Sequence record: OR896832.1
Strand: one strand, 5' to 3'
Length of the DNA stretch: 64,000 nucleotides
Source: Escherichia phage GoldenSnicker
Under the pieces are notes generated by a model. The model was not told where the DNA came from. It searched no databases and worked only from the letters and a program-made list of their open reading frames with translations. Every line of letters begins with the position of its first letter. Position 1 is the stretch's first letter. Shown piece after piece: positions 1 through 61,453 of this stretch. Both the position numbers and the translations under genes were made by a program.

Positions 1-977
1 CATATAATTTAAACACTGTCACTGTTAAACTATCGGTTGATTCGAAATTAATTGCAAGGGAACGTGATTTAATTAATTTTGATGCGACTAAGATCTATTA
101 TGGTAACGTTCTTGATACGTTGGTCTTCCGAAGTAAAGATGAGCCTACCATTTTTGTTAATGGCAGAGAAGGTCGTTTTTATCACACCAACAATAAACCA
201 ACTAAAGCCGATGTTGGACTAGGTAATGTCACCAATGATGCGCAGGTTAAACGTGCTGGTGATATTATGGAAGGTAACTTGCAAGCGCCTAGAATGTTGG
301 CGACAAACGATCCTGCTGGTCCTAATGAATTGGTTCGTTTGAGCTACTTTGAGAGAAAATCAATGGTAGCAAATCCAACCATCATTGGAAACGTTGATTG
401 GAACACTCTTATTAATCGCGGTATCTATCGTGTGGAAAATGCTGGGTCGGGTACTAATAAACCGTCTGATAGCTATTATAACGGCGTTTTGATGGTATAT
501 CGCCCAGAAGATGCGGTCGGTACTCGTCGAATTGTTCAGGTGTATTATCCTGAATCTATTGACCATCCGATGTGCTGGCGTTCGTGTTCTAATGAATCAT
601 GGACTGCATGGAACTATGTAGATCACCGTAAATTGGCTGATATTCGCTATGTTAACGTAACTGGCGATACCATGACAGGACCGTTAACTGTTCCGGCTGC
701 AAATGGCGTTAGAACAGCTAAAACTAACTATAACGGGGATAACTGTTATGCGGCGTTAAGCGGTGCTGATGGTACTGCTATGATTCACCGCATTAGTGAT
801 ATTAAAGGGACCGAAAAGCTGGGGATCACCCACGACTCAAAGGTCGTGTTTTTCCGTTCTAGAAACAATACTCAAACCGTGGACCGCTATCAGCTTTATC
901 ATGAAGGTAATAAACCTACTCCGGCTGATGTTGGCGCGGTTCCACTTAATGCGGTGATTGATTTTGGTACTTTCTAA
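1..977 (+). CDS. long tail fiber protein, gp36-like (5' partial; frame open to window start)
   Basis: Frame of ORF 120..977 has no stop back to nt 3 (track start is an internal TTG); NKPT-x-ADVG motifs shared with downstream gp37; immediately upstream of gene 37. Confidence 0.6.
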   Translation, partial: YNLNTVTVKLSVDSKLIARERDLINFDATKIYYGNVLDTLVFRSKDEPTIFVNGREGRFYHTNNKPTKADVGLGNVTNDAQVKRAGDIMEGNLQAPRMLATNDPAGPNELVRLSYFERKSMVANPTIIGNVDWNTLINRGIYRVENAGSGTNKPSDSYYNGVLMVYRPEDAVGTRRIVQVYYPESIDHPMCWRSCSNESWTAWNYVDHRKLADIRYVNVTGDTMTGPLTVPAANGVRTAKTNYNGDNCYAALSGADGTAMIHRISDIKGTEKLGITHDSKVVFFRSRNNTQTVDRYQLYHEGNKPTPADVGAVPLNAVIDFGTF

Positions 978-19505: not shown

Positions 19506-19688
19506 TCAGTAACCCCGCTTAGTGAAGTGATCTATCATGGAATTAATACAATCGGCCTCGCTGATTCCAGATATACCCCATCCGTAGTTACCCCACCTGA
19601 AATGCATGTATACACATTCGCCATGATACGATACTTTCACTTCGTCAAATTCTGGGATACTTCGCATAATCATAATAATATTCCTCAA
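19506..19688 (-). CDS. hypothetical protein (60 aa)
   Basis: Track ORF; overlaps dda stop. Confidence 0.45.
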   Translation of the reverse strand: MRNIIMIMRSIPEFDEVKVSYHGECVYMHFRWGNYGWGISGISEADCINSMIDHFTKRGY

Positions 19689-21076
19689 ATATAGTCTACA
19701 CGATACCGTGCACGGGTAACACCCACATATAATAACTGCATTGCCAATTCAAAGTCAACATTATCTGTACACATGCAAGGGGTATACAGGAACACGCGGT
19801 CTACGCTGATTCCTTGTGACTTATGAATAGTGCAAGCTGGTAATGCTTTTACATTCAAGAACATACGCTTCATCGTCCAGAAAGAATCCCAATCCGGTTT
19901 AAATTTTGGATTCTCTTTCTTCATTTCGCGATATTGTCCGGCGACCGTATTCAGATAGATAGAGAAAATGTTCTTCTGACGTTGTTCTGTCAGAATGTTG
20001 ATTTCTACTAAATCTGGTTTATCTGTAGTGATTCCGACTGCATCTAACCCTACTTTCTGATTTAGGATTTCTTTGTCTTCGTCATCATCGACGCTTTCCA
20101 CTTTCAGAGTATATCCTAAAACTGGTTGCGGATCTACCCCCGTGCAACGTAATGTAAATTCACGCGGGATGACCTCTTTAACTCGGATCATCTCACCATT
20201 GTTAAAAATAACATTGGGAATCTTCTTCCCGCGTTCATCTCGCAGATATTCGATCAATGGTTCCTGAGTAACCAGAATTTCATCTACAATCACTGGTTCA
20301 TCGGTGTTATAAACGCGCTTACGTACAATTTCATTGAGTTTTTCGACGCTCTTGTTAGTGTAAGCCAGAATACGGTTTTCTAGAAGGTCTTCCGGCGTTT
20401 TAACGGTTTCGAAATAATGCTTCATAAACTCCGGCAGAGTTGAGCTATGGAATACACCCTCGTTACCGCACTGCTTTTCGAATACCCATTTACCATTACG
20501 GACAGCGGTTGCAACGTCAATTATTGGTGCATTGGACCGTTTAATCTCTGTGAGTTCTACATTCTGGAAATTTTCATCCGTGAAGAAAGGAGAGATCGAC
20601 GTTGCACCGCTCGGATCAACTGGTCGTAACTGGTGAGGATCGCCAACTGCAATAACAACAATTCGACCGTTGATACTCTTCATGAGAATATCAAATAGTT
20701 TCTTATCGACCATACTCGCTTCATCAACAATGATGATCTGAACATCATCTAGCTTAGGAGTATCTTTTTGCTCAAATACTTGAGTATCTTCATAGTTGGT
20801 CGGGTTAAGACGCAATAAAGCATGTAAAGTAAATGCTTGACGACCTACCGCTTTACTCAAAACTTTTTTAGCCTGGTGGGTAGGCGTTGCCAAAACCACA
20901 CCAGTTACACCACGGCGGACCATTTCCTGAACAATGAATTTCATCATTGCGGTTTTACCAGTACCCGCCGCACCACGGACAGTTGTATGCTTCTTTTGTT
21001 CAATGCGTTTCATTAGAACATCAAAAGCATGTTTTTGCCCGTCTGTTAACATATCGAAAGTTAATACTCTGCTCAT
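19685..21076 (-). CDS. dda: Dda SF1 DNA helicase
   Basis: 463 aa; Walker A GAAGTGKT, Walker B IIIVDEASMV; position as T4 dda. Confidence 0.85.
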   Translation of the reverse strand: MSRVLTFDMLTDGQKHAFDVLMKRIEQKKHTTVRGAAGTGKTAMMKFIVQEMVRRGVTGVVLATPTHQAKKVLSKAVGRQAFTLHALLRLNPTNYEDTQVFEQKDTPKLDDVQIIIVDEASMVDKKLFDILMKSINGRIVVIAVGDPHQLRPVDPSGATSISPFFTDENFQNVELTEIKRSNAPIIDVATAVRNGKWVFEKQCGNEGVFHSSTLPEFMKHYFETVKTPEDLLENRILAYTNKSVEKLNEIVRKRVYNTDEPVIVDEILVTQEPLIEYLRDERGKKIPNVIFNNGEMIRVKEVIPREFTLRCTGVDPQPVLGYTLKVESVDDDEDKEILNQKVGLDAVGITTDKPDLVEINILTEQRQKNIFSIYLNTVAGQYREMKKENPKFKPDWDSFWTMKRMFLNVKALPACTIHKSQGISVDRVFLYTPCMCTDNVDFELAMQLLYVGVTRARYRVDYI

Positions 21077-37475: not shown

Positions 37476-38056
37476 TTTAGTTTATGTTCCTCTAAAAATT
37501 CTTCAATTTCACCTTGCAGGTCTTCCGCTTGTTGTTCCAGAATATCGCGAAATTCACCTACAGTCAAGCGATAATCACACTTCACCAGTCGATGTGGGAG
37601 AATATACCCTTTATACATCGTCTCTGACGCTTCCAGGAATACCCCACTATGCATGACAGAGATCCAACCTGTTAGCGTCAATGGAGTATTCGGAAAATAA
37701 TATTTGCTGGATTGTTTCCACTGGACGAAAGCACCATATACAATCGGATTATATTCACCAACCACACTCTTAATAATGGATTCTACTTTGTCTTTTACAA
37801 AGTCGCCAATATCCATAGTTATCATCAACTCTTTTGGATTAATGATTTTAAGGTAACGACGGTAGCCGTCATCATACCACATCTTAACAACTGACCGATC
37901 AATATTCGCTTTCAGATAGCCATAGATCGGATTCTTGTAATATGATTGTTTTAGTGTGTATGTGTGCACCAATTTAATAAAATGTTCCATTACCAACAAA
38001 TCAGAATCAGCCGCGACCATAGTCGTATTCATAATATGTTCCTCGTTCAATCTCAT
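37472..38056 (-). CDS. hypothetical protein (194 aa)
   Basis: Track ORF. Confidence 0.5.
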   Translation of the reverse strand: MRLNEEHIMNTTMVAADSDLLVMEHFIKLVHTYTLKQSYYKNPIYGYLKANIDRSVVKMWYDDGYRRYLKIINPKELMITMDIGDFVKDKVESIIKSVVGEYNPIVYGAFVQWKQSSKYYFPNTPLTLTGWISVMHSGVFLEASETMYKGYILPHRLVKCDYRLTVGEFRDILEQQAEDLQGEIEEFLEEHKLK

Positions 38057-38324
38057 ATTGTTTCAGGTCTTCTAAAAGTTCATCCACTGCTTGTTTCAGC
38101 ACATGACGCAGCGTAAAGTAATAGCTTTCATCAAATTCTATTTCCGCGCGAGGAATAGAACGAAACTTACACTTAACAGTAGTATCAGTGAGTCGCTTTT
38201 CGACCATCATCCGAACTTCTTCATGCTCTTTGGAATACCATACATCAACGGAGATCCCCTTACGTCGAGCAAACATAGGCAATGCCGCATTAAATTCCAT
38301 TACCTTTTGTGCAAGTGTTTTCAT
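38007..38324 (-). CDS. hypothetical protein (105 aa)
   Basis: Track ORF; overlaps neighbour by ~50 nt, start uncertain. Confidence 0.4.
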   Translation of the reverse strand: MKTLAQKVMEFNAALPMFARRKGISVDVWYSKEHEEVRMMVEKRLTDTTVKCKFRSIPRAEIEFDESYYFTLRHVLKQAVDELLEDLKQYEIERGTYYEYDYGRG

Positions 38325-38572
38325 CGTACAGACCCCATAGATCCACGCGCAATAACATTCTGGGTAATATCAGCAACCTTACGGGATACAATGTTTGTTA
38401 GCCCCTCTTTGGTGATATGTTCACGATCAAATGGGATTTCGTCATGAGTCCACAAACCATAGTTAGACCGAAATGATAGCATATACTGACCATCTCGCAC
38501 AACCTCAAATACATGGATCTTAGTGAATTTCGATAAACCTTCGTTGATTTCTTTCAGTGCATTAGCAATCAT
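38321..38572 (-). CDS. hypothetical protein (83 aa)
   Basis: Track ORF trimmed to ATG after TTGGAGGTTGTT; downstream of promoter 38598..38626. Confidence 0.5.
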   Translation of the reverse strand: MIANALKEINEGLSKFTKIHVFEVVRDGQYMLSFRSNYGLWTHDEIPFDREHITKEGLTNIVSRKVADITQNVIARGSMGSVR

Positions 38573-38597
38573 AACAACCTCCAATCAATTTTTAGAG

Positions 38598-38626
38598 AGT
38601 ATACCGGGGATTTCTCCCCGCGTCAA
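38598..38626 (-). promoter_or_regulatory. sigma70-type promoter (TTGACG-17-TATACT) with palindromic spacer CGGGGA-gaaa-TCCCCG
   Basis: Minus-strand TTGACGCGGGGAGAAATCCCCGGTATACT directly after gene 47 stop. Confidence 0.6.
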
Positions 38627-39652
38627 CTAACTTTTTGCGCTATTTACTTCGGCTAAAAGTTCATCAGAAATACGCTTGACCGCCGCAAGTTCTTCCGGTT
38701 CTAGGTTTTGTTCTTCCAGATATTCATAGACCATCTGAATAGTGCTTTTAACTTCAATAACACCTGTTTCCTGTGATGCGCTACTCTCCAGTTTATGGAC
38801 CACTTTTAGCTTGTGTACAACGGCCTCTAACGCGCTTTCTAACTTAGTTAACCCATTATCAGCAACCGTTGCAATAAGACGCACACTAAGCCCCTTAAAG
38901 CGTTCTACATCGATTTTATCATCTGACGGGTAAGTGATACGCACATGATAAGTTTTGTCATTCTGGATAAACTCTTTTTTGTGTGTATCGGTATCGAATA
39001 CCCAAAAACCACGCGGATCGTTTTCGTCACCAGCCGTTAGTGTGTATGGTGTACCAATATACGTTACGTTACCGCCATCACTGATAGTATGAAAGTGACC
39101 AGAAAACACTTCACGGTATTTCTTGAGGAAGTCCGCGCTATAACCTTCTGATTTTAGCCCTTTATAGAAATAGTAACCGGACAATTCCCAATGGCCTACA
39201 CAATATTCGCTGAATGAGTTTTGAATAAACTCTAAAATCTCTGATTTATTGTCATCACAAAACCACGGGAACAGATCAAATGATACACCATCAAAGGTAA
39301 CTGTTTCCGGTTTATCAATAACTTTAATACAATCATACTGGCTTAACACTTCACGCGGTGCGTTAGGCTGGATCTTGTTTCGTTTAAACATATCATGGTT
39401 CCCGACCGTGGTATAACAAGTAATATCAGCCTCTTCCAGTAACGGGATGATTTTCGTTCTATTAAAACGCATAGTTGCATGTGTGATTGCTTTTCGGCAA
39501 TCAAACCAGTCCCCTGTCTGAATCCATGTCTTAATATTATGCTCTTTGGAGTATTCAACCGCTTTCTTGATGGTGTCAAGAATATACTCATGCACCCACG
39601 GATCATCGCCACCGATACCAGTATGCAGATCACCTAAAAGCAAAATTTTCAT
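38627..39652 (-). CDS. 47: recombination nuclease subunit gp47 (Mre11/SbcD-like)
   Basis: 341 aa; phosphoesterase motifs (MKILLLGDLH.., ..GNHD.., ..GHFH..); position as T4 gene 47. Confidence 0.88.
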   Translation of the reverse strand: MKILLLGDLHTGIGGDDPWVHEYILDTIKKAVEYSKEHNIKTWIQTGDWFDCRKAITHATMRFNRTKIIPLLEEADITCYTTVGNHDMFKRNKIQPNAPREVLSQYDCIKVIDKPETVTFDGVSFDLFPWFCDDNKSEILEFIQNSFSEYCVGHWELSGYYFYKGLKSEGYSADFLKKYREVFSGHFHTISDGGNVTYIGTPYTLTAGDENDPRGFWVFDTDTHKKEFIQNDKTYHVRITYPSDDKIDVERFKGLSVRLIATVADNGLTKLESALEAVVHKLKVVHKLESSASQETGVIEVKSTIQMVYEYLEEQNLEPEELAAVKRISDELLAEVNSAKS

Positions 39653-39684
39653 AGTCTCTTCCTCTCTTCGTTTTCGATGCTCTC

Positions 39685-39713
39685 ACTATATCACAGAAAA
39701 ATAAAAAGGGAAA
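39685..39713 (-). promoter_or_regulatory. possible extended -10 promoter (TGaTATAGT) upstream of gene 47
   Basis: Minus-strand ..TTATTTTTCTGTGATATAGTGAGAG; poor -35. Confidence 0.35.
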
Positions 39714-39722
39714 CCCCTTTAA
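39697..39722 (-). terminator. weak terminator-like hairpin
   Basis: Minus-strand AAAGGG-GTTT-CCCTTT followed by TTATTTTTC. Confidence 0.4.
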
Positions 39723-39743
39723 GAGTCTCCCTTATAAAAGCCA

Positions 39744-40031
39744 TTACAGCATACTTAATACCGTTTGCCGTGTACTAATCCACATAGCAGAAAGCAGTTC
39801 TGGCGTGTGTGGCTGTTTGTAGATATCACGTAACTTTCCGATAGCGTAGATATACGCATCACGATTATCATCGATGATAGCTTGTTCAGCCCACCGCTTA
39901 AGGCGTGCAATCTCTCGCGAGTTCTTACGCAAGATCTTTTCCGCTTTCTTAGCGGCTTTAGCCTCTAGTTCTGCTTGTACTTTGTCTACTTCATTCACTG
40001 CAATCTGGTCATGCTGTTCATCGTAAGTCAT
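39744..40031 (-). CDS. hypothetical protein (95 aa)
   Basis: Track ORF. Confidence 0.5.
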   Translation of the reverse strand: MTYDEQHDQIAVNEVDKVQAELEAKAAKKAEKILRKNSREIARLKRWAEQAIIDDNRDAYIYAIGKLRDIYKQPHTPELLSAMWISTRQTVLSML

Positions 40032-40032
40032 G

Positions 40033-40266
40033 TTATTTTCCTTCTGGGATATAGTCGATGATTAAAGAAAATTCATCTTCTGATACATTATAGCTATGTG
40101 AGATTGTACCCGTAAAGACCTCAAGATCCGGTGATTTGATATTGCACGGATCGATAATCACCGGAACGCCGCAATCTCTCAAAAATAATTTGGCGAAATA
40201 CGGCACGAGGTCAGTTTCAAACTCTGCTTCTTCCAGCAAACGGGAAATGTTAATTTTCAATCTCAT
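40033..40266 (-). CDS. hypothetical protein (77 aa)
   Basis: Track ORF overlapping gene 55 stop. Confidence 0.5.
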
Positions 40267-40783
40267 AAAATTGGTCCAGGCTAGGCAATTCCTCGGTCAA
40301 TACATCTTCAACCTTTGGCGCTTTCGGTTTATTGACCGATTCCTCGTAGTTGTTGATTTTATCGTAAATGTCCTGTATGAATGCCTCATCAGCAATCTGG
40401 CACATATCAGCGTCGCGTTCGTCATATACATGATGCACAAAATATTTGTATTTTGCGGCTGTCGCTGTTCTCTCTTTTTTAATGCGCTGTACAAAAGCAT
40501 TAAAGCACGCTTGCGTGATGTAAGCATGAGGATTTTTATACTTTGTCTCGTCAAAATTAATCAAACCCTTGACCGCCGCTTCGATTCCGTCGTCGATCAT
40601 TTCTTCGCGCCATGTTTGACTATAACCAGAAAAGTTAAAACGACGTGATAGATTTTTAGAGATTTGCATAATTGCTAGGCCGATTTGATCGCTCATTGGA
40701 ACTTGCCGACCTTGTGCTGCAATTTGTTGTTTCCAACGGCAAATTTCTTCGTAAAGCTCTTTATTGTTTACATAATCAGACAC
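40250..40783 (-). CDS. 55: late-transcription sigma factor gp55
   Basis: 177 aa (GTG start); ..[58 protein letters not shown].. near-identical to T4 gp55 core. Confidence 0.9.
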
Positions 40784-40823
40784 TTCGCACCCTCGCTATT
40801 ATTTAGGAAATAACCCTTTCGGG

Positions 40824-42293
40824 CTATTCCCCATTGCCATTATACTTTCTTTGCTTAGTTATCCACACTCTAACCATCTCTACTGATTCACCGTCAGACG
40901 GATCAAGAGTTTTTCCCTTTTTCTTCATGCGGTACTTAAATCCGTTAAATCTTGCATTCTCTTGCTCGTTAAAGTCGAACATCTTTTTAAATGATTTTCG
41001 CCCTTTACGCTCACCACATTCTAGCGGAATCATTCGGTCTGTTATTACATTGGCATTAGGTAGAAACGTTTTTAGATAATCTACCAACGCCCAATCAGGA
41101 ACATATAGATTAACATTCTCCTTGCTCTCGTTGTCTCTCAGGTTACAACGCAAACATAATTGAAATGCTGGTTCCAGATAATCAGACACATGACGCGCTT
41201 TCAAAAACTCATTTGTCGGGAGATCACAACTATTAGCAAGACCTTTTAAAATATCAATCTCCCATCGTTGAGGGTTAAAGCTGAACATCACAGCAACATT
41301 TTTATGATGAATGTAAGAGTTAAGACCATAAGACCCGTAAGGTATCCGCTCACCAATACCATTTGTACACGCTTCTCGGTCCCGATTCACGGTATAAATG
41401 AAGTCATCGCCACATTCATTTTTAACCATATCAACAAGACGTTCAAAGGTATTGTTTGTTTCTGACTGGTGACGCGACCATCGTTCAGAGTCCGTCATAA
41501 GGATGATATTAACTCTATCTGTATTTTTATACTCTTTGAAATATAGTCTGGATTCTAGCGCACTCGGAACAAAATCGCAATTTGCATAGTATCGTAGATA
41601 CTTCCCACTATATGTATCAAATAGATTTGCACATGCTATCGTAACCTTTTTAAAGTCTCCCCACGTACCGTGTTTGTTATCGTTCAAGAAAACAATTTTC
41701 GACCCATTCTTCCGGTGTCCTTCGTTATGTTTTACCATAACGTTGATTTTCTTCTCTAATAACGCCTCATAAAGCCCTCTAAGAGAAGAATCGATCATAT
41801 CAGTACCATCCTTTGCACTTTCTATCTTTTCTTTGATAGCGGCCTTCTCAGAGTCTTTTAGAACTAAGTTCTGTAGGCATTCCGATTCGTCGGCGATTGG
41901 TTCGCAATGCTTCGTGATAAGTTCAAGATTAGACTTAAACGGATACTCATTAAATTCAACCAGTTGAGGAACTTCATCAATGTAAAGAGCATATTCACCA
42001 AACATTTTTGAACGTTCCATATTAGATAACGCTGTATGTGTAATGAATATCACATCAGCACCGTCTTTAACTGATTGCATTATCGACGCTTGCACTGTCT
42101 TAAGGCTTCTTAGTCTTGTGCTATCAATCAAGACAGCACGACCGCCCATTCTTTTAAACTTATTGTAAGATTGTTCACTTAAAACACGAGATGGCGAAGC
42201 AATAACCGCTTTTTCTTTTGTCTCTAGGACGTGGGAAAGTATAGCATCAGTTTTCCCCGCCGCTGGCAATGCGATTAATGTTTCAATCTTCAT
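40824..42293 (-). CDS. P-loop NTPase of unknown function (489 aa)
   Basis: Walker A LIALPAAGKTD and Walker B-like LYIDEVPQ in N-terminal ~170 aa; ~300-aa C-terminal region without recognisable motifs. Confidence 0.6.
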   Translation of the reverse strand: MKIETLIALPAAGKTDAILSHVLETKEKAVIASPSRVLSEQSYNKFKRMGGRAVLIDSTRLRSLKTVQASIMQSVKDGADVIFITHTALSNMERSKMFGEYALYIDEVPQLVEFNEYPFKSNLELITKHCEPIADESECLQNLVLKDSEKAAIKEKIESAKDGTDMIDSSLRGLYEALLEKKINVMVKHNEGHRKNGSKIVFLNDNKHGTWGDFKKVTIACANLFDTYSGKYLRYYANCDFVPSALESRLYFKEYKNTDRVNIILMTDSERWSRHQSETNNTFERLVDMVKNECGDDFIYTVNRDREACTNGIGERIPYGSYGLNSYIHHKNVAVMFSFNPQRWEIDILKGLANSCDLPTNEFLKARHVSDYLEPAFQLCLRCNLRDNESKENVNLYVPDWALVDYLKTFLPNANVITDRMIPLECGERKGRKSFKKMFDFNEQENARFNGFKYRMKKKGKTLDPSDGESVEMVRVWITKQRKYNGNGE

Positions 42294-42580
42294 TAGAAAC
42301 CCTTACGTCGTGCTTTCTGGCATTTCTTGATCATTTTATCAGAAATTTCGCGCTTAGGTGCAATCTCTTTCACACCGAAAGCACTAATGCCAAATTCAGA
42401 GAGAATATATTCAACCAACAATTCACGCACACGCGCTTTACCGATATTCACGCCGTTATTTTTCAGATATGTCTGGCCTTCGACTTGCATCAGATCTAAA
42501 TCTGCGTCGGTAATATTGATTTCTTCCATGCGCCCAAATCGAGAATAAACCATGTGTGCGATTGCATTGTGTACTAACAT
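42293..42580 (-). CDS. hypothetical protein (95 aa)
   Basis: Start at ATG after GAGGAATATATT RBS. Confidence 0.5.
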   Translation of the reverse strand: MLVHNAIAHMVYSRFGRMEEINITDADLDLMQVEGQTYLKNNGVNIGKARVRELLVEYILSEFGISAFGVKEIAPKREISDKMIKKCQKARRKGF

Positions 42581-42601
42581 AATATATTCCTCACTCAAGA
42601 A

Positions 42602-42760
42602 TTACTTAATGATACTTACTTTACCAGATCCGTGACAATGAGCGCAACACCCATCACCGCGCAATCCTGTTCCGTTACAGTGTTTACACTTCTTCAACGG
42701 TAAAGTCATTATAGCAAATAAAGCAATAATGAACACCGAAACTAAATTCTCAATAATCAT
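42602..42760 (-). CDS. small membrane-anchored DnaJ-type zinc-finger protein (52 aa), not in ORF track
   Basis: Hand translation MIIENLVSVFIIALFAIMTLPLKKCKHCNGTGLRGDGCCAHCHGSGKVSIIK; two CxxCxGxG repeats after a TM helix. Confidence 0.45.
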   Translation of the reverse strand: MIIENLVSVFIIALFAIMTLPLKKCKHCNGTGLRGDGCCAHCHGSGKVSIIK

Positions 42761-43019
42761 AAATAGCCCTCAGTTCTTTATAGCCTCCAATGTGCTCGTT
42801 GTCAATGAATATCTGGGGGTATACAAACCGGAGGCTCTTTGAGTTTAGCCTCCCCGCCAGTTCTTCAATCATATCACGGTCGGGAATAATGTCAACCCCA
42901 ACCTGCTTGAATACTGGTTTAAGTGTATACGGAATACCCAGATCATCCAGTAGCTTCATTGCACCAATACAACCATAACAATGATAAGCCTCTTTCGGTA
43001 TACCGTATATCTCGATCAT
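42750..43019 (-). CDS. nrdH: glutaredoxin-like protein (NrdH-like)
   Basis: 89 aa; CYGC redox motif near N-terminus; position of T4 nrdH upstream of nrdG. Confidence 0.6.
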   Translation of the reverse strand: MIEIYGIPKEAYHCYGCIGAMKLLDDLGIPYTLKPVFKQVGVDIIPDRDMIEELAGRLNSKSLRFVYPQIFIDNEHIGGYKELRAIYDY

Positions 43020-43492
43020 TTCTCAGCCTTTAATCTTTCTAGTTCTTCTTCCAGTTCCTTGATCCGTTGGTCACGTTCAAAGTCACGCTGTAACTTAGTG
43101 GCGAATACTCGTTTAAACTGATTGTAATCATCGATTTTAAACACTTCTTCTTCGCCATAGCGACGCACAGAAACTTCGTAGTTATTGAAGAATTGTTGCA
43201 TCATTGCTTCGGATGATAGCTCTGCTGATACCACTTTAAAATATTGATCTTCTGTAGGCGAAAACCAATTACAAGCATAAAGATAAACCTTTTCATTGTC
43301 TGGACACTGGTAAGCCTTACCATCGATTTCAATCACAGAAACATATTCAGGTATACTAGATGAATCAATAGCTAAGACTTTAAACGCACGGTCCCCGATA
43401 AACTCGGAGATCACACGATTCGCATCACTGGTTGCAAATGCTTTACGCGCTTGTTCGTTTTTCCACTGATAGGTCATACCAACAACAAACAT
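43016..43492 (-). CDS. hypothetical protein, member of W-x-GKTY paralog family
   Basis: Start at MFVVGMTYQWKNE.. after GAGGA RBS; shares ~90-aa domain (..FKVL..IEIDGK.Y..F..EV) with 43494..45327 and 49703..51791 genes. Confidence 0.55.
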   Translation of the reverse strand: MFVVGMTYQWKNEQARKAFATSDANRVISEFIGDRAFKVLAIDSSSIPEYVSVIEIDGKAYQCPDNEKVYLYACNWFSPTEDQYFKVVSAELSSEAMMQQFFNNYEVSVRRYGEEEVFKIDDYNQFKRVFATKLQRDFERDQRIKELEEELERLKAEK

Positions 43493-43493
43493 A

Positions 43494-44318
43494 TTACCAT
43501 CCTCGCTCTTTACCAATCAAAAATTCAACTTCACGACGTTTAATGTCTTCTTGAAGGTCTTTAATCTTCTGGCGATCTTGCATGATTTCATCCATCTTGT
43601 CAAGTGCCGCAATGAAATCATCGAAACGTTCAAAGGTTTTACCTTCATTTGCTTCGCCAAATTTAACCATTGTCAGGCCGTAACGACTACTAAACAGACG
43701 TTTCAACTGTCCAACGATTTTAGAATCAGTGGTTATAACTTCCAATTCTTCTACTTCACGAAAGATTTTTCTATCAGAATCAATAAACCAGCTAGTTCCT
43801 TTATGGTCTCTATCTTCGGTTGCGCTCATTAGAGTATGGTCTTTACCATCAATTTCAATTACATCAATTTGCCCACATGGACTAACATTTTTAACAGTAA
43901 AAGGTCTATAATTTATTGCTCGTGCAATAACATAATTAAGGTTAGATACGTTTTCAGCATAATGGCAGAAGTCGGTCATAGCATTCGCATCTTTCCAAGT
44001 ATAAGTTTTACCAACTTCCCATTTCTGGGGAACTTCTTCAACTTCACGAAAGAATTTTCTATCGAATGGACTAAAGAAATATGTTGCCGTCCAAATGTCT
44101 TTTCCTGTAGCAGTTTTCGCCGTATGATAAACACCGTCTAGCTCTATTGCATCAATCCAACCGTTACCATCGATCTCGATGATGGTAAATGGCTTGTCAC
44201 CAATAGCTGCACTAATATCGCTGTTAAGTGGAGAAAGAACACCTTCTCCGTTAGTAATAAACTCAGTTTTAGCGTTTTCGTCTTTCCAGGTGTAAGTTTT
44301 ACCAATTTCCCATTTCAT
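43494..44318 (-). CDS. hypothetical protein with two tandem copies of the W-E-x-GKTY-x-WKD domain
   Basis: 274 aa; MKWEIGKTYTWKDENAK.. and internal ..QKWEVGKTYTWKDANAM.. repeats, each followed by ..IEIDG..F.REVEE. Confidence 0.6.
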   Translation of the reverse strand: MKWEIGKTYTWKDENAKTEFITNGEGVLSPLNSDISAAIGDKPFTIIEIDGNGWIDAIELDGVYHTAKTATGKDIWTATYFFSPFDRKFFREVEEVPQKWEVGKTYTWKDANAMTDFCHYAENVSNLNYVIARAINYRPFTVKNVSPCGQIDVIEIDGKDHTLMSATEDRDHKGTSWFIDSDRKIFREVEELEVITTDSKIVGQLKRLFSSRYGLTMVKFGEANEGKTFERFDDFIAALDKMDEIMQDRQKIKDLQEDIKRREVEFLIGKERGW

Positions 44319-44330
44319 AATATATTCCCC

Positions 44331-44795
44331 TTAACCGATTTTATCAAGTTCGTTTAATGCTTTCTCTGCTTCCTGTATAGCTTGCACCCTTTCCGGCATT
44401 TTGTCAAGAAAATCTTTCAACTCTTCAAAACTGGAGATATGACGCAATGCGTTAGCACCGATAGCCGCATGTGATTTGCATTCAAAGCGGATTTTATAAT
44501 TATCCATCGCCAACTTGAGAAGATCAATTAATTTAGATTCTTCTGGAATAATAATTTCTTCAAATCTGCTACGGTCATGATCCAGAAACCAACAAGATAG
44601 ACCTACATCGGTTGAACTCATATAAGTTCCATCATGAAGATAAACAGACCGCACGTATCCTTTTTTCGCATCAACCGACGCAACTTTAAACGGTAATCGC
44701 AGATATTTCAAATAATCAACATCATACCATTTAAAAAATTGGTTTGCATCTTTTACATCTTTCCACGCATAGGTCTTACCAGCTTCCCATTTCAT
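44331..44795 (-). CDS. hypothetical protein, W-E-x-GKTY paralog family
   Basis: Start at MKWEAGKTYAWKD; C-terminal coiled coil. Confidence 0.55.
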   Translation of the reverse strand: MKWEAGKTYAWKDVKDANQFFKWYDVDYLKYLRLPFKVASVDAKKGYVRSVYLHDGTYMSSTDVGLSCWFLDHDRSRFEEIIIPEESKLIDLLKLAMDNYKIRFECKSHAAIGANALRHISSFEELKDFLDKMPERVQAIQEAEKALNELDKIG

Positions 44796-44799
44796 AATA

Positions 44800-45327
44800 T
44801 CATCTCTCATTTTTGATACGTGATTCTAATTGGATCATACGGTCGCGCGTTTGTTTGTATTCTCGGATAGCACCGATCCGGCTAGGCATACCATCCAGTA
44901 CGCTCTTAATACCTTCTAGGGTAGTAATTTTGGCAATGCTATTATGTAACCCCATCTTATCGATCAACTGAATGTCGTAGGCTTCCATAAGCAGACCCAG
45001 GTGTTCTAAAGTTAGGTCTTCTTCTTTTTCTTCCGAATCTGGAATCTTAGGTTCAATAATAACTTCGGTAAAGAAACGACGCTCACCCGACCAAAACCAC
45101 ACACCGGAACAGCCAATAGGGGATTCTTTTAACGTCATAGAGTCGAAATCACTACCAATAATAGTAATTTCTCTAACATCACCATCATCGTCAAGGTCTT
45201 CTACCCTAAACGGGCGACCAGCCAACAAGTCAACAATACATCTGTTAATAGACGACGAAAATTTAGTCAGTTCGGCTTTCGACGCTTCGCATTCAATCTT
45301 GTAAGTTTTACCAACTTCCCATTCCAT
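44800..45327 (-). CDS. hypothetical protein, W-E-x-GKTY paralog family
   Basis: Start at MEWEVGKTYKIE after GAGGTGATTATT RBS. Confidence 0.55.
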   Translation of the reverse strand: MEWEVGKTYKIECEASKAELTKFSSSINRCIVDLLAGRPFRVEDLDDDGDVREITIIGSDFDSMTLKESPIGCSGVWFWSGERRFFTEVIIEPKIPDSEEKEEDLTLEHLGLLMEAYDIQLIDKMGLHNSIAKITTLEGIKSVLDGMPSRIGAIREYKQTRDRMIQLESRIKNER

Positions 45328-45337
45328 AATAATCACC

Positions 45338-61445: not shown

Positions 61446-61453
61446 TATTTATA
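61446..61453 (-). promoter_or_regulatory. T4 late-promoter-like TATAAATA box
   Basis: Minus-strand TATAAATA (plus tatttata) 33 nt upstream of ATG at 61412. Confidence 0.4.

Follow-up and report, generated by a model that had tools for sequence, protein, structure and literature searches.

Two earlier studies bear on the 489-residue protein described here, the product of an open reading frame (ORF) beside gene 55 in a 64,000-nucleotide stretch of DNA from Escherichia phage GoldenSnicker (sequence record OR896832.1), which we analysed at its full length and call the window. In the study by Nolan et al. (2006; PMC1524935), RB49ORF044c of phage RB49 appears with a weak DEAD/DEAH match (E = 0.069). 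Kazlauskas et al. (2018) reported that some mobile-element primases are fused to domains with remote similarity to superfamily 2 (SF2) helicases; the closest homologues of those domains were uncharacterised proteins of 'some T4-like phages and SPbeta' (pVOG1685/9714), a predicted helicase family (PMC5862659). The idea that the protein may be a helicase goes back to these papers of 2006 and 2018, and in the record of phage W115 the gene is annotated 'putative helicase'.

Described helicases offer several points of comparison. According to a review of DinG, XPD and DinG carry an Arch domain inserted between motifs II and III. They also have an iron-sulfur (Fe-S) or pseudo-Fe-S domain between motifs Ia and II. 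A 2026 structure paper on the herpesvirus helicase UL9 describes an atypical motif II (DEVM/DEIM) and names DEAD-box proteins as its closest folds; UL9 also contains a 'Bridge' motif and, at its C-terminus, a large region for dimerisation and SAP origin binding. Phage T4 encodes Dda, of superfamily 1B (SF1B), and UvsW, of SF2, both from families different from that of the protein studied here.

For the GoldenSnicker protein we infer ATPase and unwinding activity, a DNA substrate, early timing together with the neighbouring gene 55.2 homologue, and an accessory role in replication or recombination. That it is an active SF2 DNA helicase or translocase of this kind is the reading we consider probable. 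We place it in a separate family that is restricted to phages and mobile genetic elements. New findings are a modelled architecture that resembles XPD/DinG but lacks the Fe-S domain; fusions with the helicase N-terminal and a primase C-terminal, along with split pairs, in integrase/AlpA islands; and the strict synteny of nrdH, 55.2, the helicase gene and 55.

A conserved phage gene with divergent SF2 motifs

The window comes from an RB49-like Krischvirus: across bases 38000-45000 its identity is 98.8% to Escherichia phage vB_ESM-pEJ01 and 98.4% to RB49. A six-frame ORF list contains the gene as an ATG-to-TAG frame, and its position beside gene 55 agrees with the first-pass annotation of this DNA (Table 1). 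By tblastn, the protein is 100% identical to RB49 NP_891615 (RB49ORF044c), which is annotated in RB49 as 'hypothetical protein'. It matches phrog_2467, a family without an assigned function, end to end (E = 9e-175), and homologues with 31-74% identity occur in dozens of phage genomes and contigs. Sequence conservation far above chance marks the ORF as a genuine conserved gene.

The N-terminus of the protein, MKIETLIALPAAGKTDAIL, places ALPAAGKT at residues 8-15, and LYIDEV follows at residues 103-108. We compared the sequence within a close-family alignment of 22 phage homologues and a distant alignment of 87 relatives that are 18-28% identical to the query. In the close family, G13, K14, T15, D106 and E107 are invariant, and motifs Ib and II have the consensus VIFITH and LYIDEVP. 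Among the distant relatives the invariant residues are K14, D106, E107, G323, N325, Q378, R382 and R386, which, as read from the alignments, are the ATP-binding and hydrolysis set. The earlier assignment as a P-loop NTPase is borne out, as Walker A and Walker B are both present and K14, D106 and E107 are retained in all 87 relatives.

The first-pass annotation had seen no recognisable helicase motifs in the ~300 residues that follow the NTPase core. We found otherwise. The Pfam model PF00270 (DEAD/DEAH) matches residues 11-130, that is, the N-terminal domain only, at 27.4 bits against a gathering cut-off of 26; it also matches 10 of the 22 close and 53 of 73 distant family members, and the ResIII model matches 34 of those 73. 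Further along, divergent versions of SF2 motifs III, IV, V and VI are visible in the family alignments, as are motifs Ia and Ib nearer the N-terminus, and a second RecA-like domain is predicted (below). The features expected of an SF2 protein are present: a Walker A AAGKT (residues 11-15), DEVP (106-109) and the glutamine and arginine fingers of motif VI.

Predicted architecture and comparison with known helicases

An AlphaFold2 model built on the 22-sequence alignment (mean predicted local distance difference test (pLDDT) 86.8, predicted template modelling score (pTM) 0.75) has two RecA-like alpha/beta domains, contradicting the earlier view that helicase features are lacking. The first domain is split by an insertion of ~95 residues, in which the model places strands at 113-119, 186-189 and 198-204 and helices at 121-127, 147-162 and 166-179. 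In the model, the first RecA-like domain, the insertion, the second RecA-like domain and a short helical tail fill the whole length of the protein, with no extra catalytic domain. This predicted architecture gives no support to a further proposal of the first-pass annotation, that of a nucleotide- or DNA-modifying enzyme.

Structural comparison of the model returned XPD/DinG proteins as the top two-domain matches: Sulfolobus tokodaii XPD (score 17.0, 313 aligned residues), XPD 3crv (15.7, 336), Finegoldia DinG (15.0, 362), E. coli DinG (14.6, 377), Rad3 (14.6, 349) and CasDinG (14.3, 332). Single-domain alignments were obtained to many SF2 proteins; UvsW, likewise, aligned over one domain only. 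The ~95-residue insertion occupies the same sequence position as the Arch domain, and more than 310 residues of the predicted model align to XPD/DinG. However, the phage protein has no counterpart of the Fe-S or pseudo-Fe-S domain: ~38 partly disordered residues without a cysteine lie between motifs Ia and Ib, none of residues 43-100 is a cysteine, and the only invariant cysteines are C130 and C380. It also differs from XPD/DinG in its motif II, DEVP rather than DEAH, in being much shorter, and in having its Walker A eight residues from the N-terminus.

At the sequence level, the Pfam models DEAD_2 and Helicase_C_2 did not match the query at E up to 1, and neither was among the best 25 of the 35 Pfam families matched by 73 relatives. 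No NCBIfam model matched the 489-residue protein. Alignment by hhalign to single E. coli DinG, RhlE and UvrB sequences gave probabilities of 0.4-20%, values so uninformative that they neither support nor exclude any SF2 subfamily. Because no specific sequence tie to XPD/DinG emerged, we file the protein as an SF2 helicase of its own family, with an architecture most like that of XPD/DinG, and not as a DinG.

UL9 and the phage protein, the latter by prediction, are both viral SF2 proteins with an atypical motif II, DEVM/DEIM in one and DEVP in the other. The origin-binding region and Bridge motif of UL9 have no equivalent in the phage protein, whose tail is ~70 residues long. This tail (residues 421-489) is basic, and E445 and W477 within it are invariant. 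In an hhalign comparison it aligned to the stretch of a distant relative, P0089, that bears a weak helix-turn-helix (HTH) match, which would be compatible with a DNA-binding role and is offered as a suggestion.

Relatives in integrative mobile elements

An exhaustive profile search of 1.84 billion cluster representatives (clustered at 50% identity) returned 1328 proteins at E up to 1e-3, 773 of them with E at or below 1e-10. The 1328 relatives fall into two length classes, of ~480-550 and ~750-890 residues. Proteins of the long class, exemplified by P0043 and by a Bradyrhizobium chromosomal 'DEAD/DEAH box helicase family protein', consist of the helicase core followed by ~310 residues with the consensus LDF(D/E)-x-G ... 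RFRV ... SGLD-x-SK ... F-Y-L-P. When modelled (pLDDT 86.5), this extension has a fold that matches archaeo-eukaryotic primase-polymerase. Some short relatives, P0089 among them, have weak, sub-threshold HTH matches at their C-terminus.

Gene neighbourhoods add to this association. On two contigs (L007 and L008), genes for a tyrosine integrase and an AlpA-like HTH protein (HTH_17) precede the gene for the long protein, and cargo genes follow it. A metagenomic integrase/AlpA island (L043:10001-12350, plus strand) carries the two parts separately, as a gene for a 463-residue helicase core and an adjacent 258-residue gene, followed by DUF927 genes; the 258-residue product matches the primase-domain profile with an hhalign probability of 100% (E = 1e-64). 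The helicase core is found again in replication modules of integrative mobile elements, in physical linkage with a DNA primase-polymerase, and this is the strongest argument for a DNA substrate and a role in replication.

The arrangement recalls the published description of the pVOG1685/9714 family, to which RB49 ORF044c may correspond, in having a remote-SF2 core in T4-like phages and relatives fused or adjacent to primase-polymerases. The fusions reported previously have the primase N-terminal and the helicase C-terminal (PMC5862659), whereas those found here have the helicase N-terminal and the primase C-terminal. The N-terminal extension of one relative, P0127, did not match the primase-domain profile, so the published order was not reproduced. 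A third large protein search, which used the distant alignment as its query, mostly recovered phage proteins already found.

At L041:8804-18774, a locus that looks like a mobile or defence island, a distant relative of 526 residues has as its neighbours a complete set of type I restriction-modification genes (HsdR/S/M), several transposases and a gene for a non-specific endonuclease.

Distribution, synteny and expression in T4-like phages

By tblastn, 243 of 50,697 phage records contain the gene, and the 58 matches with more than 95% identity are all Krischvirus records. The phages that carry it are T4-like, with genomes of 160-235 kb: Krischvirus, RB43-type, Aeromonas, Proteus/Morganella, Cronobacter/Citrobacter/Enterobacter and similar phages. 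It is absent from T4-type phages, T4's own locus included. A scan of IMG/VR found close relatives on T4-like phage genomes only, and a scan covering 185,579 species genomes yielded no more than two loci, each showing the synteny of a T4-like phage. One of these (L010; NZ_JBHSCL010000010.1, 178,077 bp), filed under 'Flagellimonas marina', carries nrdH, 55.2 and the helicase gene; the other (L009; JBOFGC010000083.1), filed as a 'Bacilli' metagenome-assembled genome, carries nrdH, the helicase gene and the genes for gene products (gp) 55 and 47. Both are probably phage sequence in bacterial assemblies, so that the close relatives would not be cellular.

Across genera, the order nrdH, (55.2), helicase, gp55, a-gt.5, a-gt.4, gp47 is almost universal (31 loci). 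RB43-type phages keep nrdH, 55.2 and the helicase gene and then have gene 34 in place of 55. Identity between genera, taken over the same loci, is 35-42% for the helicase, 34-63% for gp55 and 38-56% for gp47. This synteny, together with divergence like that of gp55 and gp47, points to vertical descent under purifying selection of a gene that is absent from the T-even lineage.

The corresponding order in T4 is 47, 47.1, a-gt, mobB, a-gt.2 to a-gt.5, 55, 55.1, 55.2 ... nrdH. The earlier placement of the ORF in the region where T4 carries its alpha-glucosyltransferase gene therefore needs correction, as a-gt lies between 47 and 55 and the ORF is on the other side, in the 55/55.2 slot that is filled in T4 by the 87-residue gene 55.1. 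We considered whether 55.1 might be a remnant of the helicase gene and rejected the idea, since the two are unrelated (hhalign probability 0.4%). Nor did homology to other proteins named beforehand as possible identities come to light: 55.2 corresponds to the neighbouring ORF, and there was no PhoH match.

The TAA stop codon of the 55.2 homologue and the ATG of the helicase gene have one base in common (TAATG), an overlap from which the two are probably translationally coupled. The 55.2 protein of T4 inhibits host topoisomerase I, and its gene is transcribed early (PMC4396842). Only one copy of the T4 late-promoter consensus TATAAATA lies in the 64 kb, against 5.7 +/- 2.3 expected from shuffled sequences, a scarcity that fits a window made almost wholly of early and middle genes. 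Taken together, the scarcity of late promoters and the early T4 55.2 transcript make early expression of the helicase gene likely. Upstream candidates for sigma-70-like promoters were not above the level in shuffled sequences, and we did not rely on them. An RNA hairpin at the helicase stop codon folds at -20.3 kcal/mol (z = -3.16); as no U-tract follows, it is not a classical terminator.

Proposed function and alternative explanations

If the protein is the accessory helicase that we consider probable, ATP would be bound and hydrolysed in the cleft between the two RecA-like domains by K14/T15, D106/E107 and Q378/R382/R386, and the resulting domain movements would pull single-stranded DNA through the core. 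The ~95-residue insertion at the Arch position would probably help to enclose or split the duplex, and the tail, which is short, basic and helical, may interact with DNA or a protein partner. The enzyme would be produced early, along with the 55.2 inhibitor of topoisomerase I, and would work beside Dda and gp41 of the phage to open DNA where replication initiates, at R-loops or at stalled forks.

Several observations weigh against this assignment. The motifs from III to VI are divergent, the query draws no Helicase_C-type Pfam match at E up to 1, and the fold is a prediction from the 22 phage sequences only. Searches of PDB sequences, whether made with the protein alone or with the 22-sequence profile, returned nothing relevant and no XPD/DinG chain, the 73-sequence profile gave only generic SF2 N-terminal matches (Mss116, reverse gyrase, XPB, PriA, RecG, Mfd, UvrB), and hhalign of the phage profile against E. 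coli DinG was not significant (probability 0.4%). XPD and DinG move 5'-3', whereas the remotely similar UL9 is generally reported as 3'-5', precedents that point to no one polarity for the phage protein. Genes for Dda, gp41, UvsX and topoisomerase II subunits also lie in the window. With Dda, gp41 and UvsX present, the 489-residue protein would be an additional helicase, the need for which is unexplained, and T-even phages manage without it. In the literature that we searched there was no experimental, biochemical or genetic work on any family member, and the absence of an experimentally assigned function agrees with the first-pass annotation.

The neighbourhoods of the island relatives could also be read as those of an initiator. 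The phage protein would then be an origin-opening helicase that recognises specific phage DNA sites, possibly via its tail, and melts them, an analogue of UL9 and of the related island replicases. We regard this as unlikely, though it draws on several lines of evidence: distant relatives sit in the replicase slot after integrase and AlpA genes, fused or adjacent to primase-polymerases; the phage tail aligns in P0089 to the region of the weak HTH matches seen in short relatives; the DEVP of motif II is close to the DEVM/DEIM of UL9; and the related pVOG9714 has been linked to UL9 (PMC5862659). Yet the phage protein has no recognisable DNA-binding domain, the HTH matches of its relatives are below Pfam thresholds, and the UL9-type model PF02399 does not match the query, giving one weak, sub-threshold match in a distant relative. 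Origins of the T4 type fire from R-loops and are not known to use a dedicated initiator, and no origin is known beside the helicase gene, both of which count against such a role. In its fullest form, which we hold equally tentatively, non-T-even T4-like phages would have a sequence-directed initiator derived from island helicase/primase-polymerase replicases, opening origins or R-loops, maybe with co-translated 55.2 keeping the DNA negatively supercoiled; such phages would then have a route to starting replication that T4 lacks.

Location and rarity, in turn, might suggest an anti-defence or host-takeover motor, as the first-pass annotation had proposed in part, which would strip or decoy a host immune or repair complex and so compensate for unmodified cytosine DNA. 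The gene occupies the slot of T4 55.1 next to 55.2, T4 genes that both modulate host proteins; it is absent from T4 and limited to the few phage records given above, with its closest matches all in Krischvirus; and one distant relative adjoins type I restriction-modification genes and transposases. We nevertheless think this rather improbable, because strict synteny and core-like divergence, from Aeromonas to Escherichia phages, are unlike the behaviour of patchy, fast-evolving anti-defence genes, all the catalytic motifs are conserved, phylogeny confounds the correlation with unmodified DNA, and the single match to the PADLOC defence models was at chance level (13.6 bits). An RNA helicase or transcription-linked remodeller acting with the neighbour-encoded gp55 is very doubtful. 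The sole Pfam model above threshold is DEAD/DEAH, a group made up mostly of RNA helicases, and in most genera the gene adjoins gene 55. But DEAD-box RNA helicases have a DEAD motif II and an upstream Q motif, whereas the phage protein has DEVP and only seven residues before its Walker A stretch, which leave no room for a Q motif. Its best two-domain fold matches, moreover, are DNA helicases, its relatives are paired with DNA primase-polymerases, and in RB43-type phages the gene precedes gene 34 and not 55, while the link to 55.2 persists. Most improbable of all is a nucleotide- or DNA-modifying enzyme or an inactive helicase-like scaffold, for which there is no positive evidence and the sole argument is that no function had been assigned before. 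No domain is left over for other chemistry, the alpha-glucosyltransferase slot is on the other side of gene 55, and the family-wide invariance of the catalytic ATPase residues argues against a dead scaffold.

Should the accessory helicase reading be right, T4-like phages of the RB49, RB43 and Aeromonas types hold a helicase beyond Dda and gp41 that is missing in T4, drawn from a family that integrative islands otherwise employ beside their primase-polymerases. That family is large, with its 1328 cluster representatives, and wholly uncharacterised. Its predicted XPD/DinG-like fold without an Fe-S domain may show how such motors work without that module. In ~240 phage records, 'hypothetical protein' could be replaced by 'putative SF2 DNA helicase'; current views are not overturned.

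Feature coordinates and neighbouring genes

Table 1 Positions of the predicted helicase gene, its domains and motifs, and other features (nucleotides are numbered in the window, residues in the 489-residue protein)
Feature	Residues	Nucleotides	Strand	Description
Helicase gene	489 aa	40824-42293	minus	ATG-to-TAG ORF
RecA-like domain 1, first part	1-110	41964-42293	minus	predicted; motifs I, Ia, Ib, II
Insertion, ~95 aa	111-205	41679-41963	minus	predicted mixed strand/helix module between motifs II and III
RecA-like domain 1, second part	206-255	41529-41678	minus	predicted; motif III
RecA-like domain 2	256-420	41034-41528	minus	predicted; motifs IV, V, Va, VI
C-terminal tail	421-489	40827-41033	minus	low-confidence linker; predicted helices 435-438, 443-458, 468-484
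Motif I / Walker A	8-15, ALPAAGKT	42249-42272	minus	family consensus PAAGKT
Motif Ia	32-42, ASPSRVLSEQS		minus	family consensus IAS-x-SR-x-LS-x-QS
Motif Ib	81-86, VIFITH		minus	
Motif II / Walker B	103-109, LYIDEVP	41967-41987 (LYIDEV: 41970-41987)	minus	
Motif III	VTIACAN; CAN 221-223	41625-41633 (CAN)	minus	consensus VTIA-x-AN; A222 and N223 nearly invariant
Motif IV	298-303, FIYTVN	41385-41402	minus	family consensus FIYT-x-N-x-x-R
Motif V	322-327, YGLNSY	41313-41330	minus	family consensus (H/Y)GLN-x-Y
Motif Va	333-341, VAVMFSFNP		minus	family consensus FS(F/Y)NP
Motif VI	Q378, R382, R386	41136-41162	minus	family consensus PAFQLC-x-R-x-x-x-R
Conserved VPD strand	398-400		minus	in RecA-like domain 2
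Gene 55		40250-40783		late sigma factor; directly downstream of the helicase gene
RNA hairpin		40803-40833	minus	13 bp, GAAA tetraloop; extends across the helicase stop codon, shortly before the ribosome-binding site of gene 55
55.2 homologue	101 aa	42293-42598	minus	upstream of the helicase gene; DUF7570 (Pfam E = 1.4e-28), RB49 and RB43 annotation
Dda homologue		19685-21076		encoded separately in the window
Late-promoter match		61446-61453	minus	sole match to TATAAATA

Between gene 47 and a-gt.4, at window position ~39653-39743, the window lacks the HNH endonuclease gene RB49p040 (555 bp) of RB49, and because of this absence the megablast match to RB49 is in two pieces. Upstream of the helicase gene, a 52-residue ORF between nrdH and 55.2 (42602-42760, minus strand) has a hydrophobic N-terminal helix and two CxxCxGxG repeats (KHCNGTG ... 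AHCHGSG) that resemble a DnaJ-type zinc finger; the annotation of phage W115 calls the ORF a 'putative membrane protein'. Farther along, at 43016-45336 on the minus strand, are four adjacent paralogous ORFs of 166, 274, 159 and 178 residues, all 'hypothetical' in RB49. They have in common an N-terminal module of ~90 residues (W-E-x-G-K-T-Y-x-W-K ... W-F) followed by a helical C-terminus, and in the 274-residue paralogue the module occurs twice.

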